Below are positions 5,304 to 58,955 of a DNA stretch of 64,000 bases, piece by piece (the stretch's first letter is position 1; each line of letters begins with the position of its first letter). Location: the NCBI RefSeq assembly GCF_938045405.1, contig NZ_CALIMW010000057.1, positions 2,312 to 66,311 of the forward strand. Reading direction: 5' to 3'. The position numbers and the translations under genes were made by a program. The stretch is from an uncultured Campylobacter sp. (lineage in GTDB: Bacteria > Campylobacterota > Campylobacteria > Campylobacterales > Campylobacteraceae). The notes under the pieces are model-generated. The model was not told the origin of the DNA. It saw only the letters and a program-made list of their open reading frames with translations, and did no database searches.

Positions 5304-6208
5304 TATTTAAACCTTTCGATCTGGTGTTGCACGACATTTGCGATCTCCTGCCACGATACGTTAGGCTCCAAGGTTGAGATATTTTTGAAATTCTGCGCGT
5401 TCCAGCTCATAAAATTTGCAGGATCAACGCTTTGAGCCAAAAACCTAACTTCGTAATGCAAGTGCGGACCGGTGCTGTAGCCGGTGTTACCGCTATAGCC
5501 GATGAGATCGCCCTTTTTAACCCAAGAACCGGGCGTTACGACCGCGGAGCTAAGGTGGCCGTAGCGGGTCTCAAAGCCGTAATTGTGCGATAGAATCACT
5601 AAAATTCCATATCCGCTGCCGCTACCACCTGCAAACTGCACGAAGCCCTCTGCCGTCGCAAACACCGGAGTGCCCTCGCTCGCTCGCAGGTCGATGCCGT
5701 GGTGCATCCTCATAACGCCACTGATTGGATGAGTGCGCATCCCAAAAGGGCTAGTAACGCCGCGATACTGCATCGGAAGGCCGTTAGGCACGGCGCTAAG
5801 GATCACGCTCGCCGTTTTTTCGCTAGCTGCGATGTGCGCGCCGGAGCCCTTTTTGCGCTCCTTTTTCATCTCATTCATCGCAAGCATTACCTGGATATCA
5901 CTATCCAGCCCGCCTCCATCGTCTTCGCGTCCGTCCAGCTTGGCAAGCACCTCCTCATTTTTGCCCTCAAGCGCGATATTTTGCTCTTTTAGCGCGAGAT
6001 TTTCGGCGTATAGGGTTTTGTTTAGCTCTTTTAAATTTGAACGGTCGCTCGCGAGTTTAAATATCGCAAAAAACAAAACAAGCAGAAAAATTACAAAAAA
6101 CGCGGATAAAATTTTAAGTTGAAATCTAAAATTTTCGCCAAAATACAGCGTCTTGGTGCCAAAGTGATCGCTTAGGGTAAGTTTAGTTTTAGCCACGGCG
6201 CGCCTCAA
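5303..6208 (-). CDS. M23 family metallopeptidase (LytM-domain peptidoglycan endopeptidase) with N-terminal TM helix and coiled coil
   Basis: HHGIDL ... GNTGYSTGPHLHYEV zinc-binding motifs of peptidase M23. N-terminal hydrophobic helix and heptad-like region. Confidence 0.85.
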   Translation of the reverse strand: MRRAVAKTKLTLSDHFGTKTLYFGENFRFQLKILSAFFVIFLLVLFFAIFKLASDRSNLKELNKTLYAENLALKEQNIALEGKNEEVLAKLDGREDDGGGLDSDIQVMLAMNEMKKERKKGSGAHIAASEKTASVILSAVPNGLPMQYRGVTSPFGMRTHPISGVMRMHHGIDLRASEGTPVFATAEGFVQFAGGSGSGYGILVILSHNYGFETRYGHLSSAVVTPGSWVKKGDLIGYSGNTGYSTGPHLHYEVRFLAQSVDPANFMSWNAQNFKNISTLEPNVSWQEIANVVQHQIERFK

Positions 6209-7874
6209 GCCATAAAATGAAATTTTCTACCAAATGAAACGAGCCAAAAACCAAATACTCCTCGTCCGCTCTAAGCTCGCCGCGAAACGGCGAATGCGGA
6301 ATTTTAAGCGCGTCAAGCGCACGGGTTATCGCCTCTGCCGCCATTTCGCGATCCGCAACCTCGTAGTTAAAGATCTCCACGCGCTCTACCACGGGCGCTA
6401 AAGTCCGCAGCACAGCAGCTACGTCCTTATCGGCAAAGGCGTTGTAAATCAGCACGATCTTTCTGCCCCTGTAGATTTCGGTAATTTCACGGGCGACTTG
6501 CTGCGCCGCAAGCTCGTTGTGTCCGACATCCACGCATAAATTTGGCGCCAAAACTTCCATCCTGCCGCGTAAATTTAGAGGCGGCAGCTGTGAAATTTCA
6601 AATTTCAAATTTAAAAATTTCATCGCGGCAAGCGCTAGGGCTAAATTTGAAATTTGAAATTTAGGTAGATTATTGCACGCGCAAAACTCCGCGATCTGCG
6701 CTTGCTCGCTCTTGCTTAAAAGCTCTGCTGCAAACCTCAAATGAGTTCCTTTTTGCTCTGCGATCTGCTGCGCGATACGAAGCGGAACCTCGCTCATCTC
6801 ATCGCTTAAAATCGCCTCCTTATCCATCGTAATGAGCTTGGTGTGGGCGATCTGCTCTAGATTTTGTCCTAGCATGCCTAAATGATCGGTGCCGATCGGT
6901 GTAAAAAGCGACAGCGTGCGTCCAAAGCTCGACGTAGCGTCAAACTCGCCGCCCATCCCAGCCTCGATCACGCAGTAATCGCAATCCCTAAAAAGCACTG
7001 CCGCCGCAAGAGTGAGATACTCGAAATACGACAGGCTATCTTTAAACTCCGCGGGCAAGCTCTCTTGCAAAAACTCATGCGCGAAATCAAGCTCCTCATC
7101 CGTAGCATCGCGCCCTAGCGAAATGGGAAGCGAGCTTTGAGTGGATTTAAAATTTGATCTTAGCTGAGATTTAAAATTTTGCTCTGGCGAGAATTTTAAA
7201 TTTTGCTCAGACGGCGATTTGAGATCTTGAGAATTCCATAAATTTTGTGTAGAAGTAGAATTTTGCGCGATGAAATTATGCTTGCTACAAAAATTTTGCA
7301 TGGTATAAACGGAGTTCTGCAGGGCAGAATTCTGCTCACCATGCGAATCCTGCATGGTGATAAAATCCTGCGTGGTGGAATTTTGCAAATTAGAAATAGA
7401 AATTTGAGAGGCGGAATTTTCTCTGTTCGCAAAATTTTGCATCTTTATGGAATTTTGTTTTTCCGTAAAATTTGGCGCCAAAGCGGAATTTTGCTCGTTT
7501 TTAAAATTTGAAGCGTCGGAATTCAACGCAAAAACGGGGTTTTGCGCGATCCGTCCGCCTAGATAGATGCGCTCGTTGAGCCTAAAAACGTGCGGGCTGG
7601 TGTAGTGCCCTACGCTAAAGCCCGCTGCGGCGATCGCGTTAGCCAAAAACCGCCCGGTGCTACCCTTGCCGTTGGTGCCGATGATCTGAATGACATTTCT
7701 GAGCGGAATTTTATCTTTAATGGCGGCATATGCCCGCGGGAAGCGCTCGTAGTCGATTTTTTTGTAATAAATCGGGCGATTTTGCAAAAATTCTTTAATG
7801 CTGCGCCCGCTCAAGTCTGAATCCCCTAATCGCAAGCGCCGAAATAAACTCGTCAAACGCCTGCGCGGAGGCAT
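6189..7874 (-). CDS. folC: bifunctional folylpolyglutamate synthase / dihydrofolate synthase FolC carrying a ~145-aa in-frame low-complexity (QNS/QNF-repeat) insertion
   Basis: Mur-ligase motifs IQIIGTNGKGSTGRFLANAIAAAGFSVGHYTSPHVFRLNERI. 561 aa, versus about 380-430 aa for typical FolC. The insertion spans about aa 105-250 (nt ~7127-7562). The true start may be the TTG near 7811, because the track ATG at 7874 overlaps the upstream lipoprotein gene by 80 nt. Confidence 0.8.
   Translation of the reverse strand: MPPRRRLTSLFRRLRLGDSDLSGRSIKEFLQNRPIYYKKIDYERFPRAYAAIKDKIPLRNVIQIIGTNGKGSTGRFLANAIAAAGFSVGHYTSPHVFRLNERIYLGGRIAQNPVFALNSDASNFKNEQNSALAPNFTEKQNSIKMQNFANRENSASQISISNLQNSTTQDFITMQDSHGEQNSALQNSVYTMQNFCSKHNFIAQNSTSTQNLWNSQDLKSPSEQNLKFSPEQNFKSQLRSNFKSTQSSLPISLGRDATDEELDFAHEFLQESLPAEFKDSLSYFEYLTLAAAVLFRDCDYCVIEAGMGGEFDATSSFGRTLSLFTPIGTDHLGMLGQNLEQIAHTKLITMDKEAILSDEMSEVPLRIAQQIAEQKGTHLRFAAELLSKSEQAQIAEFCACNNLPKFQISNLALALAAMKFLNLKFEISQLPPLNLRGRMEVLAPNLCVDVGHNELAAQQVAREITEIYRGRKIVLIYNAFADKDVAAVLRTLAPVVERVEIFNYEVADREMAAEAITRALDALKIPHSPFRGELRADEEYLVFGSFHLVENFILWLEARRG
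7127..7562 (-). repeat. in-frame tandem repeats of ~gaatt(t/c)tgc units (encoding QNS/QNF) inside folC
   Basis: More than 20 imperfect repeats of g/aaatt(t/c)tgc, visible on the + strand at irregular 12-30 bp spacing. Stop-free in the folC frame. Confidence 0.8.
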
Positions 7875-23279: not shown

Positions 23280-23999
23280 ATGAAAAAAATCGTATTTTTG
23301 ATCCTGCTTTTCGCAGCCGTTGCGCTCGCGCTTTATGTTACTTCGCGCGTAAATCCAAATCTTTTCGCCGAAATCAAAATCCTAGGCGCACTACTAAACG
23401 CCACGATTTTCGGCGTCGCGCTCATCGCCTTAGCGATCGGCGAAAAGGAGCTCGTGCGCTTTCCGTTTCTTACCGCCTCGCTACTGGCGCTGTTTTCGGG
23501 ACTGGTAGAGGGCGTGCTGCTCTTCGAAAACCGCTACTACATCGCGATCACGGCGGCAGCGTTCGTCGCCTTCGTCTTTTATCTGCAGATAAGGCACAAA
23601 AGATTTTCAAACAAAGCTTATAAAAATTCTGCGAACGAAGGCTCTAGAAATTTAGATGAGAGCGCAAATTTAAAAGACGCGGATTTCGGCGGCGCAAAAG
23701 AGGCGCAGGAGCTGCAAAATAAAAGCGCCGCGGCGGATGAAATTTTAAACTTTAAAAGCGGTGGCGAAATTTCAAATTCTCAAAGCGAGGATGAAATTTT
23801 AAATTCTAGTGGCGATCTCGGTGAAAATTTCGCGAGCGGCGCCGATGAAAATTCTACGCATCGCGCTGATGAAAATTCCGACGAAAATTTTAAAATTTTA
23901 AACGGCGGCGCGGGCGAAGGTAGCGCGGACGAAAATTCCGTGCAAAATTTCAATCAGGATGGTGAAAATTCCGCGCCCGGCGCAAGGCGCGATAGATGA
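23280..23999 (+). CDS. membrane protein with C-terminal acidic ENS/ENF/EIL low-complexity repeats, hypothetical
   Basis: 239 aa. About 4 TM helices, then about 120 aa of D/E/N/S repeats encoded by gatgaaaatt-type units. ATGA-coupled to the next ORF. Confidence 0.5.
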   Translation: MKKIVFLILLFAAVALALYVTSRVNPNLFAEIKILGALLNATIFGVALIALAIGEKELVRFPFLTASLLALFSGLVEGVLLFENRYYIAITAAAFVAFVFYLQIRHKRFSNKAYKNSANEGSRNLDESANLKDADFGGAKEAQELQNKSAAADEILNFKSGGEISNSQSEDEILNSSGDLGENFASGADENSTHRADENSDENFKILNGGAGEGSADENSVQNFNQDGENSAPGARRDR

Positions 24000-32493: not shown

Positions 32494-32886
32494 GTGGGCA
32501 GGGGAAATTCTAAATTTAGCGGATCTTGCGAGGATGCCGAAAGTTTAAATTTAAGCGGACAGAATTCAGGCTGCGATTTAAATTTAGATGAGCAGAATTC
32601 TTTAAAAGAGCAGAATTTCGCCACTTCAAATTTGAACGATGAAAGCTCTGCGGCGGCGTTAAATTTAAACAGTCAAAGCTCTGCCGCCATAGATATTGCC
32701 TCTACGTCAAATTTAGATAGCGAGAATTCCGCCACGGGAGCCACTGCATTAAATTTTAAAAATAAGAATTCCGCGACGACGGACATCATAGCGACATCAA
32801 AAACGATGGCGGGCGCCGCAAAAACAGGAAGCTACAACGAGCGTCGTAGAAGTAAAAACGACGAAAACAGCGCAAAACGATATTGA
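32494..32886 (+). CDS. low-complexity ORF (QNS/ENS/LNL repeats); possibly a translated repeat array rather than a genuine gene
   Basis: 130-aa ORF made entirely of cagaattc/aaattt repeat units. No domain. Starts 4 nt after the envC stop. Confidence 0.25.
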   Translation: MGRGNSKFSGSCEDAESLNLSGQNSGCDLNLDEQNSLKEQNFATSNLNDESSAAALNLNSQSSAAIDIASTSNLDSENSATGATALNFKNKNSATTDIIATSKTMAGAAKTGSYNERRRSKNDENSAKRY

Positions 32887-39714: not shown

Positions 39715-39920
39715 CGGCGCAAATTCCATGCCACGTGGAATTTTGCGTCATAAAATTCCGTACCACATAAAATTTACACGCGAAATTCCGTGCCGTATAA
39801 AATTCTACGCCTTTAAAATTCCACAGCGAAATTCTGCGCCATGCAGAATTCTATGTCACGCCGAACTTTGCGGTGCCGTGCGCAAGGATACGTTAAAATT
39901 TCGTATTAAATTTACCCAGC
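39715..39920. repeat. ~16-bp-periodic tandem array of (R)AAATTCYRYRCC units, about 10 copies, between eamA and the vWA gene
   Basis: The aatt cores fall at about 39722, 39739, 39754, 39771, 39785, 39800, 39817, 39830 and 39847, giving spacings of 13-17 bp. The array spans the spurious ORF 39728..39943. Confidence 0.8.
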
Positions 39921-40008
39921 AGAGGCGTGCGGCGAAGCTTTAGCAATAAAATTTCATTGCTTAAGCGATACAATAGTAAAATAATGAAATTTTAACAAAG
40001 GAGCCCCT

Positions 40009-56733: not shown

Positions 56734-57012
56734 TCCCTCTCCTTTTTTGGGCCGAATTTCAGCCGTAATTGTATAAAAAAATCTCTGATAAAATTTTAAA
56801 ATTTAAGAGCGGGGCTCAAATTTAGACGCGAAATTTTGCTTGGAATTTCATTTAAGATCACATACGAAGCGTGAGCGGAATTTTGGGGTAAAATTTAAAA
56901 ATTTTAGGATTAAATTTGAGCTTTTTGAGCGAAAATTTTAAAAAATCCGCCACGCCACTTACGTAAAATTTTAAAGCTTTACGCGCGGCGGGCGGCTAGA
57001 AAAACAAAGAAT

Positions 57013-58103: not shown

Positions 58104-58955
58104 TTAAATTCTAAAGCTTTGCCTACCAGCCGCCTCTTCAGGATCTGAATTATCATCGCGCTCCTGCGAGCGCCCGCCGCGCAGCTCCTGTCTGGGCTGC
58201 ACGCCAAAGCCCTCCAAGACCTTGCCTAGGCTTTCATTAGCGTCCTTGATGATACCTTGCAGGCTTTCGCCCATCTGATCAAGGTTTTTGCCCGCCTCGC
58301 GCGCCGCCGCCTCGCCCTGCTTTAGCAGATCCTTGGTCCTATCGGCGTTGCGAGCGGCGAAATCGTTCAGCGCTTCGGGCGCCTTTTTCTGCAAATTTTG
58401 CAAGGCCTCGCCCAAAACTTTAGCATCGTTTGCAAGCTCGTCTATCGTGGAATTTAGATCGGATTTTTGCTTGCTCTCAAAGCCCTGCGGCACGGAATTT
58501 TGCGTGGAGCCTTGCATAGAATTTTGTGTGGAGCTTTGAACGGAATTTCGCCCCGAGCTATCCGTGCTTTTATTAAAATTTCGCCCTTGATTACTCGCGC
58601 TAAAATTCTGTTCCGATCGTGCGCTTTGTTCGCGATTTTGCGCGTCTGATCCGCCGTCGCAGCCGCTTAAAATACATATCGCGGCTAACGCCAAAGTAAA
58701 ATTTCGCGCCGCGTTTATAAAACTAAAATTTCTAGCGCGACCCGCTGAGATAAAATTTAATCCGCCCTGCGCCGAGATAAAATTTCGCCCGCTGCCGATC
58801 TTTATAAAATTCTGCCTAACGTATGCCGAAGTAAAATTTCGCCCGCCATCCGCCGAATCGAAATTTCGCGACCGTCCAGAGCCCGGCTCGCCGCTAGCTC
58901 TGATAAAATTCTGCGCCAAATCCCGTCCGCACCCTTTCAAAATTCGTCTTTTCAA
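58104..58955 (-). CDS. putative lipoprotein with coiled-coil C-terminal region; the N-terminal ~90 codons are a 27-bp-periodic repeat array and may be untranslated
   Basis: The track ORF starts at TTG 58955, 12 nt after the cinA stop. Residues 1-90 are RNF/QNF 9-aa repeats. A lipobox-like ALAAICILSGC|D sits at about aa 89-99 (Cys at nt ~58661). The C-terminal 150 aa is helical and charged. Confidence 0.45.
   Translation of the reverse strand: MKRRILKGCGRDLAQNFIRASGEPGSGRSRNFDSADGGRNFTSAYVRQNFIKIGSGRNFISAQGGLNFISAGRARNFSFINAARNFTLALAAICILSGCDGGSDAQNREQSARSEQNFSASNQGRNFNKSTDSSGRNSVQSSTQNSMQGSTQNSVPQGFESKQKSDLNSTIDELANDAKVLGEALQNLQKKAPEALNDFAARNADRTKDLLKQGEAAAREAGKNLDQMGESLQGIIKDANESLGKVLEGFGVQPRQELRGGRSQERDDNSDPEEAAGRQSFRI

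Follow-up and report, generated by a model that had tools for sequence, protein, structure and literature searches.

Introduction

The question raised by this locus is why FolC, an essential bifunctional folylpolyglutamate/dihydrofolate synthase, should in an oral Campylobacter carry some 147 extra residues of repetitive sequence between two conserved parts of the enzyme, and whether it is the protein or the underlying DNA that keeps them there. The gene lies in a 64,000-nucleotide stretch of an uncultured Campylobacter sp. assembly (contig NZ_CALIMW010000057.1, positions 2,312 to 66,311 of the forward strand), which we refer to, at its full length, as the window. A sequence-only reading of this DNA had noticed a stop-free repeat block inside folC, interpreted it as an in-frame expansion of an intergenic repeat family, and likened it to the Rickettsia palindromic elements (RPEs). 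Our analysis makes it reasonably likely that the segment is a disordered loop formed by a coding-region array of the hexamer RAATTY (R, A or G; Y, C or T), which grew by slippage and is kept by drive or selection acting on DNA. Taken alone, the insert is a moderately unusual low-complexity loop insertion; the DNA-level constraint that lies behind it is the more interesting result.

An In-Frame Insert Between Two Conserved Blocks of FolC

The folC coding sequence occupies positions 6189-7814 on the minus strand, specifies 541 amino acids (aa) from a TTG start, and overlaps the end of lptE; a longer open reading frame (ORF), which opens with ATG and extends up to 7874, also runs into lptE and probably does not mark the real start. 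The product is identical to P0001, annotated at NCBI as bifunctional FolC, and scored 238.4 bits against TIGR01499 (folC; cut-off 162.65) in two matching stretches with the insert between them. Pfam Mur_ligase_M was recognized at 24.7 against a cut-off of 24, and Mur_ligase_C was borderline, falling just under its cut-off (28.3 versus 28.4).

Three segments can be delimited within the gene, all on the minus strand. The conserved N-terminal block (7557-7814) contains the P-loop GTNGKGSTGRF and the TSPH loop, and its last element is the ERIYLG strand. It is followed by the in-frame insert of ~147 aa (7116-7556; GRIAQ...PISL) with its 18 RAATTY hexamers, and then by the remainder of FolC (6189-7115), which completes the ATPase domain with its SYFEY, EAGMGGEFDAT, and DH motifs and also holds the C-terminal domain. 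With LGGR on one side and LGRD on the other, the borders of the insert are uncertain by a few residues, and a possible short duplication there (CTAGGCGGACG and CTAGGGCGCGA, read as LGGR and LGRD) gives too faint a signal for interpretation. These alignment-based limits agree with the 7127-7562 given by the sequence-only reading, and the insertion that it described is real, as judged from the TIGR01499 match, the alignment gap relative to insert-free FolC proteins, and the open frames found in relatives.

A HMMER search of the PDB, made with a 531-aa translation that starts 10 residues inside the 541-aa protein, returned Helicobacter pylori FolC (6k8c) at E = 2e-70, with the match split into two blocks around a gap of ~148 aa. 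Residues 2-83 of this translation aligned to 6k8c residues 18-101, and residues 232-523, from the part of FolC encoded at 6189-7115, to 6k8c residues 103-386; about 148 residues therefore separate positions that are neighbors in the solved structure (101 and 103). When aligned with insert-free Campylobacter FolC (C. curvus, C. mucosalis, C. sputorum, C. blaseri, and C. geochelonis, 383-407 aa), the insertion site fell exactly between ERFYLN and G(R)DxSDxEL, which correspond in the window protein to the ERIYLG strand and the GRDATDEEL helix. Both in insert-free Campylobacter FolC of 379-395 aa and in H. pylori 6k8c this site is a single hairpin turn. The segment is absent from the insert-free proteins, so it is not a conserved, structured region of FolC, an outcome for which the original reading had proposed just such an orthologue alignment.

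The predicted structure agrees with this placement. An AlphaFold2 model (predicted template-modeling score, pTM, 0.72), built on a 42-sequence alignment of the window protein with 41 Campylobacter FolC, matched 6k8c at E = 6e-32 with a target-normalised template-modeling (TM) score of 0.81, and Escherichia coli FolC 1w78 with a TM of 0.74, in keeping with a FolC fold of two domains. Residues 95-227 formed one unbroken segment devoid of secondary structure, with a predicted local distance difference test (pLDDT) score below 50 (mean ~29). The flanks of the insert were mostly at 82-98, as was most of the part encoded at 6189-7115, and the N-terminal block lay at ~68-95. The insert is thus predicted to be a disordered loop, placed at a hairpin turn in the ATP-binding domain that tolerates extra residues; of the earlier expectation of a surface loop, the loop position is borne out by the hairpin turn in 6k8c, and the disorder is a prediction of the model. 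Invariant columns of the 42-sequence alignment included G46-L57, T72-H75, E81, R82, E265, E284, D292, D310, and H311, so that the P-loop, the SPH loop, and the acidic and His catalytic motifs are all unchanged. The enzyme core appears intact and under normal purifying selection, and activity in the presence of the insert is suggested by the low ratio of nonsynonymous to synonymous polymorphism (pN/pS) in the flanks, given below, and by the open frames.

Other Campylobacterota have accommodated extra sequence in the same enzyme. Unrelated low-complexity inserts occupy this same loop in the FolC representatives P0214, P0209, P0151, and P0223, and in P0126, P0136, and P0144 inserts occur at a second site, just ahead of the C-terminal domain. 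Several of these are also rich in xN[S/F/L] tripeptides (x, any residue). They probably arose independently of the window insert, with which those at the shared loop have the enzyme and the permissive site in common; the loop is a recurrent permissive site.

The Insert Is an Array of RAATTY Hexamers

Within 444 nt of insert we counted 18 RAATTY hexamers, whereas the frequency in the remainder of the window predicts ~4.2 (Poisson p = 5e-7). All but two of them lie in the codon phase xxR-AAT-TYx (16/18), which is read as x-Asn-Ser/Phe/Leu, and the encoded peptide contains 19 xN[S/F/L] tripeptides, among them 12 of the form [Q/E]N[S/F/L]. The repeat block reported previously is therefore present, and the figure of more than 20 repeats given for it was slightly high. 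Serine (17%), asparagine (15%), and glutamine (12%) are prominent residues, the GC content of the insert is 38% compared to 51% in the rest of folC, and its asparagine codons are strongly biased to AAT (18 of 22, versus 53% genome-wide; p = 0.0045).

The clearest tandem repeat in the insert (7144-7220, minus strand) was reported by Tandem Repeats Finder (TRF) as a 24-nt unit in 2.7 copies; it encodes SEQNLKFSPEQNFKSQLRSNFKS, and relatives show an 8-aa indel there. TRF found no other clean tandem array in the insert, which is otherwise made of degenerate repeat families (63-79% identity) whose spacings within the insert are all multiples of 3. RAATTY density equals that of the insert in four other 300-nt stretches of the window, and the tract is therefore not unique in this genome.

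A phase-variable contingency repeat was considered as an identity for the tract and rejected: the units are 18 and 24 nt long and degenerate, and every observed allele is in frame.

Length Variation and Selection Among Relatives

We compared the locus across relatives using a scan with one genome per species, which yielded ~55 loci from the C. gracilis clade, including a metagenome-assembled genome (MAG) named C. gracilis; the nearest match was 99% identical. More than 160 independent homologous sequences bear the insert. Every clade locus that spans the site (49/49 measurable loci) has both the insert and an open frame. The distance from the SPH motif to SYFEY is 103-195 aa in the clade, compared to 42 in the insert-free Campylobacter sp. 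M4. Strain-to-strain comparison of insert length, which had been suggested as a check on the original observation, revealed a 2.5-fold range, from 61 to 153 aa, and complete loss was never seen. Among the 120 closest proteins (89-100% identical, 523-553 aa), all internal indels fall within the insert and include 6- and 8-aa units, the size of the repeats; one allele (L038) shows a precise deletion between two copies of QNF.

In a sister lineage (L046, P0121) the site is occupied by a different insert, which cannot be aligned with this one and has the same end, NFK(S/T)A-PIGRD; the insertion is therefore old and evolving fast. RAATTY density is nonetheless 31-46/kb in the inserts of every lineage, the unalignable one included; in L046 it is 31/kb, with all hexamers in the same codon phase as in the window insert. 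Some proteins with 87-90% overall identity to the window FolC (P0291, P0320) have a sister-type insert, together with the sister-type helix that follows it, a pattern that suggests recombination with breakpoints around the tract.

Diversity was scored over 47 of the 48 clade sequences in a codon alignment (L046 was omitted). In the FolC flanks, diversity at codon positions 1, 2, and 3 was 0.023, 0.027, and 0.104, with a pN/pS of 0.135, and in the non-motif part of the insert it was 0.071, 0.093, and 0.118, with a pN/pS of 0.47; insert codons that overlap a RAATTY motif gave a pN/pS of 0.265. Protein-level constraint on the insert is relaxed, though the insert is not fully neutral. The AATT cores stand apart from their surroundings: their diversity (0.0135) is ~7-fold lower than that of other insert positions (0.095; p = 4e-5). 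Strong conservation in the loop is thus limited to the open frame and these cores.

RAATTY Is Constrained at the DNA Level in Two Regions of the Genome

The motif is not confined to the insert. AAATTT is the most over-represented hexamer in the window (423 sites, 24.6 times the mononucleotide expectation). It makes up most RAATTY, which as a class is present at 9.3 times expectation with A at the R position in 82% of sites. AAATTT sites are spread over the three codon phases (74/106/122), and their density between genes (15.8/kb) is three times that in coding sequence (5.3/kb).

Conservation was tested in two regions. In a 7.6-kb alignment of the folC region from 35 genomes at ~95% identity, diversity at third codon positions within RAATTY cores was 0.0015 (n = 76), compared to 0.113 at other A/T third positions (p = 6e-11). 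The second, independent region, at 41-60 kb of the window, was tested with contigs from a metagenome scan: coding third positions in RAATTY gave 0.031 versus 0.112 (p = 3e-5), and intergenic positions in RAATTY gave 0.0035 versus 0.066 (p = 7e-8). RAATTY is under DNA-level constraint in both of the genome regions tested.

Two candidate causes of motif conservation were rejected. The first was codon usage: across the genome, the synonymous alternatives are in frequent use or even favored (AAC 408 versus AAT 453; ATC 811 versus ATT 350). The second was a mutation rate set purely by A/T context: other A/T tetramers at third positions gave 0.036-0.14, compared to 0.012 for AATT.

RAATTY density is mostly 9-10/kb (range 7.2-12.2) in 26 related Campylobacter contigs (loci within L062-L104) whose GC content extends from 38% to 52%. 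Since density is steady over this range, the ratio of observed to expected sites climbs with GC, from 3.8 to 11.4. A contig of 36% GC (L057) has 8.1 sites per kb, and six more distant contigs have 3.4-6.5.

CAATTG does not occur at all in the whole window, where ~16 sites would be expected, and this looks like restriction-site avoidance.

A Proposed Origin for the Loop

The loop probably grew, and still changes length, by slipped-strand events or unequal recombination among the 18- and 24-nt units, a mode of growth and change that we infer with good support. Each such unit would bring with it one RAATTY in the phase xxR-AAT-TYx, and thus one x-Asn-Ser/Phe/Leu. The array would have accumulated where FolC tolerates extra residues, as uptake sequences and the HIP1 palindrome do in permissive parts of genes.

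What would keep the hexamers is suggested by work on other species. C. jejuni takes up only DNA that has been methylated at RA(m6)ATTY by CtsM (PMC10046745, PMC8468864), and RAATTY methylation is common among Campylobacter species (PMC13436318). By extension from those species, RAATTY in this clade would be the target of a CtsM-type N6-methyladenine (m6A) methylase. A bias in uptake and recombination (molecular drive) would then keep RAATTY sites and multiply them, as would selection for motif density, and either would account for their abundance, their conservation, and their accumulation where proteins tolerate them.

The closest parallels are HIP1 (GCGATCGC), the DNA uptake sequence (DUS) of Neisseria, and the uptake signal sequence (USS) of Haemophilus, each of which, like RAATTY, is a short over-represented word found in all frames and between genes. 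The likeness extends to conservation at synonymous sites, a preference for places that proteins tolerate, and a tie to methylase or uptake specificity. USS and DUS occur at roughly one tenth of the ~10/kb density of RAATTY. A preprint describes a link between HIP1 and transformation (bioRxiv 10.1101/2024.09.10.611283). RAATTY differs from all three in being only 6 bp long and degenerate, in forming a 147-aa in-frame array within an enzyme, and in having a role that would here be assigned by analogy.

A second parallel comes from a eukaryote. Housekeeping proteins of Plasmodium falciparum contain Asn-rich, length-polymorphic, non-globular in-frame loops that arise by slippage of AAT repeats. 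Like the FolC loop, these are placed between conserved enzyme blocks; the conserved unit in FolC, in contrast, is a specific hexamer and not an AT-rich codon run. The Campylobacter genome has a GC content of 49%, and base composition therefore does not explain the FolC tract.

Several points weigh against a loop written by a DNA motif. The coding-site effect is smaller in the 41-60 kb region (3.6-fold) than in the folC region (75-fold). The pN/pS of the loop, at 0.47, is below 1, so that some constraint at the protein level persists. Alignment of repeat to repeat may inflate motif conservation in the insert and the intergenic arrays, a problem that does not touch what was seen at synonymous sites of ordinary coding sequence. 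Translation through the tract would follow from the conservation of the frame, and the link of RAATTY to methylation and uptake in this clade is one carried over from other species. Finally, RAATTY may be conserved for other causes, such as a DNA-binding protein, DNA curvature, or methylation-based regulation.

More broadly, and only as a tentative proposal that we think has a modest chance of being correct, the C. gracilis group, and with it probably many Campylobacter, may have in RAATTY an "uptake and methylation word" that propagates itself, holds a density of ~10/kb whatever the GC content, fixes synonymous sites, and builds arrays within genes, the FolC loop among them. If this is so, selection on a DNA mark that serves natural transformation would have produced some of the low-complexity sequence in the proteome as a side effect. 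The FolC loop would be a case of a DNA-level process writing protein, with Asn-Ser/Phe/Leu due to the hexamer and not to a role in the enzyme, and the ideas of uptake sequences and molecular drive would extend to Campylobacter. Such a reading predicts that the density of methylated RAATTY governs uptake and that the arrays are uptake hot spots. Campylobacter is known to recognize its own DNA by a methylated 6-bp motif. Our literature searches returned no report of RAATTY accumulation or conservation in Campylobacter, and neither the Campylobacter literature searched nor the C. gracilis genome paper had anything on AAATTT over-representation.

Alternative Explanations

Length polymorphism in repeat-sized units and a relaxed pN/pS are also what would be seen if the loop were only a neutral low-complexity expansion, a slippage product that is tolerated, with RAATTY conserved for a cause unconnected to transformation (sites for nucleoid or regulatory proteins, DNA bending, or methylation-based regulation). 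AAATTT, which accounts for most RAATTY sites, is an A-tract junction, and junctions of this kind are preferred by many minor-groove binders. The edges of the motif bear on the choice: substitutions at the R and Y positions of the insert hexamers are mostly A/G and C/T, a degeneracy that fits the published methylase motif (PMC13436318), although transitions are the commonest changes in any case, which weakens this argument. We regard neutral expansion as rather unlikely, with perhaps a one-in-several prospect of being the whole story.

Less probable still, and to our minds improbable, is a loop maintained for a function of its own, in which Asn/Gln/Ser-rich disorder would serve regulation, partner binding, localisation, or the formation of condensates. 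Such a function would explain why the insert is kept in every genome of the clade, at a minimum of 61 aa, why its pN/pS is less than 1, and why its asparagine positions are nearly invariant. At the residue following each asparagine (+1), however, the chemically unlike Ser, Phe, and Leu replace one another exactly where the DNA motif permits, and a fixed Asn with Ser/Phe/Leu interchange is the pattern that the hexamer allows, not one that a structural role would favor. The bias of asparagine codons to AAT is likewise not demanded by any need at the protein level, and elsewhere the motif is conserved at synonymous and intergenic sites as well. The 2.5-fold length range, the unalignable sequence at the same site in the sister lineage, and the unrelated inserts at this loop in other Campylobacterota FolC all argue in the same direction.

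That the tract came from a mobile palindromic element of the RPE kind, landing in frame in folC, is very improbable. The idea draws on the in-frame position of the insert in an essential gene, the similar motif arrays between genes, and the finding that the tract, as RNA or DNA, has a more favorable fold than shuffled sequence (z = -3.8). The folding signal, however, is that expected from palindromic CARAATTYTG units: all 21 short inverted pairs at 6900-7800 are accounted for by the palindromic hexamer or decamer, and no terminal inverted repeats were seen. RPEs are discrete and multi-copy, with a recognisable consensus. The FolC insert, by contrast, has no element-like consensus or ends, its variants differ in internal repeat units and not in whether an entire element is there, and its best blastn match in the other 63.5 kb of the window scored 36 bits, compared to 34.7 bits for shuffled inserts. 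No extended copy of it exists elsewhere in the 64-kb window, and the tract is therefore not RPE-like. The parallel drawn by the sequence-only reading holds only in that both are extra in-frame sequence in essential genes whose host protein is apparently functional. Its companion claim, of an expanded intergenic repeat family, survives as a short motif shared with the arrays at 39720-39990 and 56750-57010, and fails as a copy of a discrete element: what insert and intergenic arrays share is a 6-bp word, hyper-abundant in all codon phases and between genes.

An assembly artefact or frameshifted pseudogene, to which the few MAG contigs that end inside the tract (L043/L055, L052/L053) might point, is extremely improbable: well over 100 independent assemblies, drawn from several sources, share this architecture, and in each of them the frame is open.

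Those contig ends indicate that the repeat breaks short-read assemblies. As a separate observation, some of the reported folC allele lengths may be affected by contig breaks in the tract.

Anyone annotating genomes or predicting protein structures in the C. gracilis clade should be prepared for loops of this kind. FolC is a drug target, and its surface is markedly different in this clade.

Other Motif-Dense Tracts in the Window

A second RAATTY-dense patch lies within a conserved domain of FolC itself (6570-6690, minus strand; 8 hexamers in 120 nt). Here the peptide KFQISNL, which is also conserved in other Campylobacter FolC, is encoded as AAATTTCAAATTTCAAATTT, with a 7-nt period that uses all three phases, and TRF reported 7-nt arrays at 6593-6622 and 6643-6662. 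An inverted array of three AAATTTG lies 20 nt from AAATTTCAAATTTCAAATTT, so that a hairpin or cruciform could form inside folC.

The two intergenic arrays (39720-39990 and 56750-57010) each reach 13 RAATTY per 300 nt, and in the first the repeats recur about every 16-18 nt (…aaattccgtgccgtataaaattctacgcc…).

Three ORFs in the window also encode motif-rich protein, and scans of all three against Pfam and NCBIfam returned no family match. The ORF at 23280-23999 (plus strand) has a low-complexity C-terminal tail at 23700-23999 (DEILNFKSGGEISNSQSEDEILNS...ENSVQNFNQDGENS), with RAATTY in the codon phase of the folC insert. A putative 130-aa ORF at 32494-32886 (plus strand) immediately follows an M23 peptidase gene and is made up mostly of xN[S/L/F] units (LNLSGQNSGCDLNLDEQNSLKEQNFATSNLN...), and the ORF at 58104-58955 (minus strand) has RNF, QNF, or LNF motifs about every 10 residues (GRSRNFDSADGGRNFTSAYVRQNFIKIGSGRNFISAQGGLNFISAGRARNFS). 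The neighbors of folC on its own strand are mfd, an M23 peptidase gene, lptE, and leuS.

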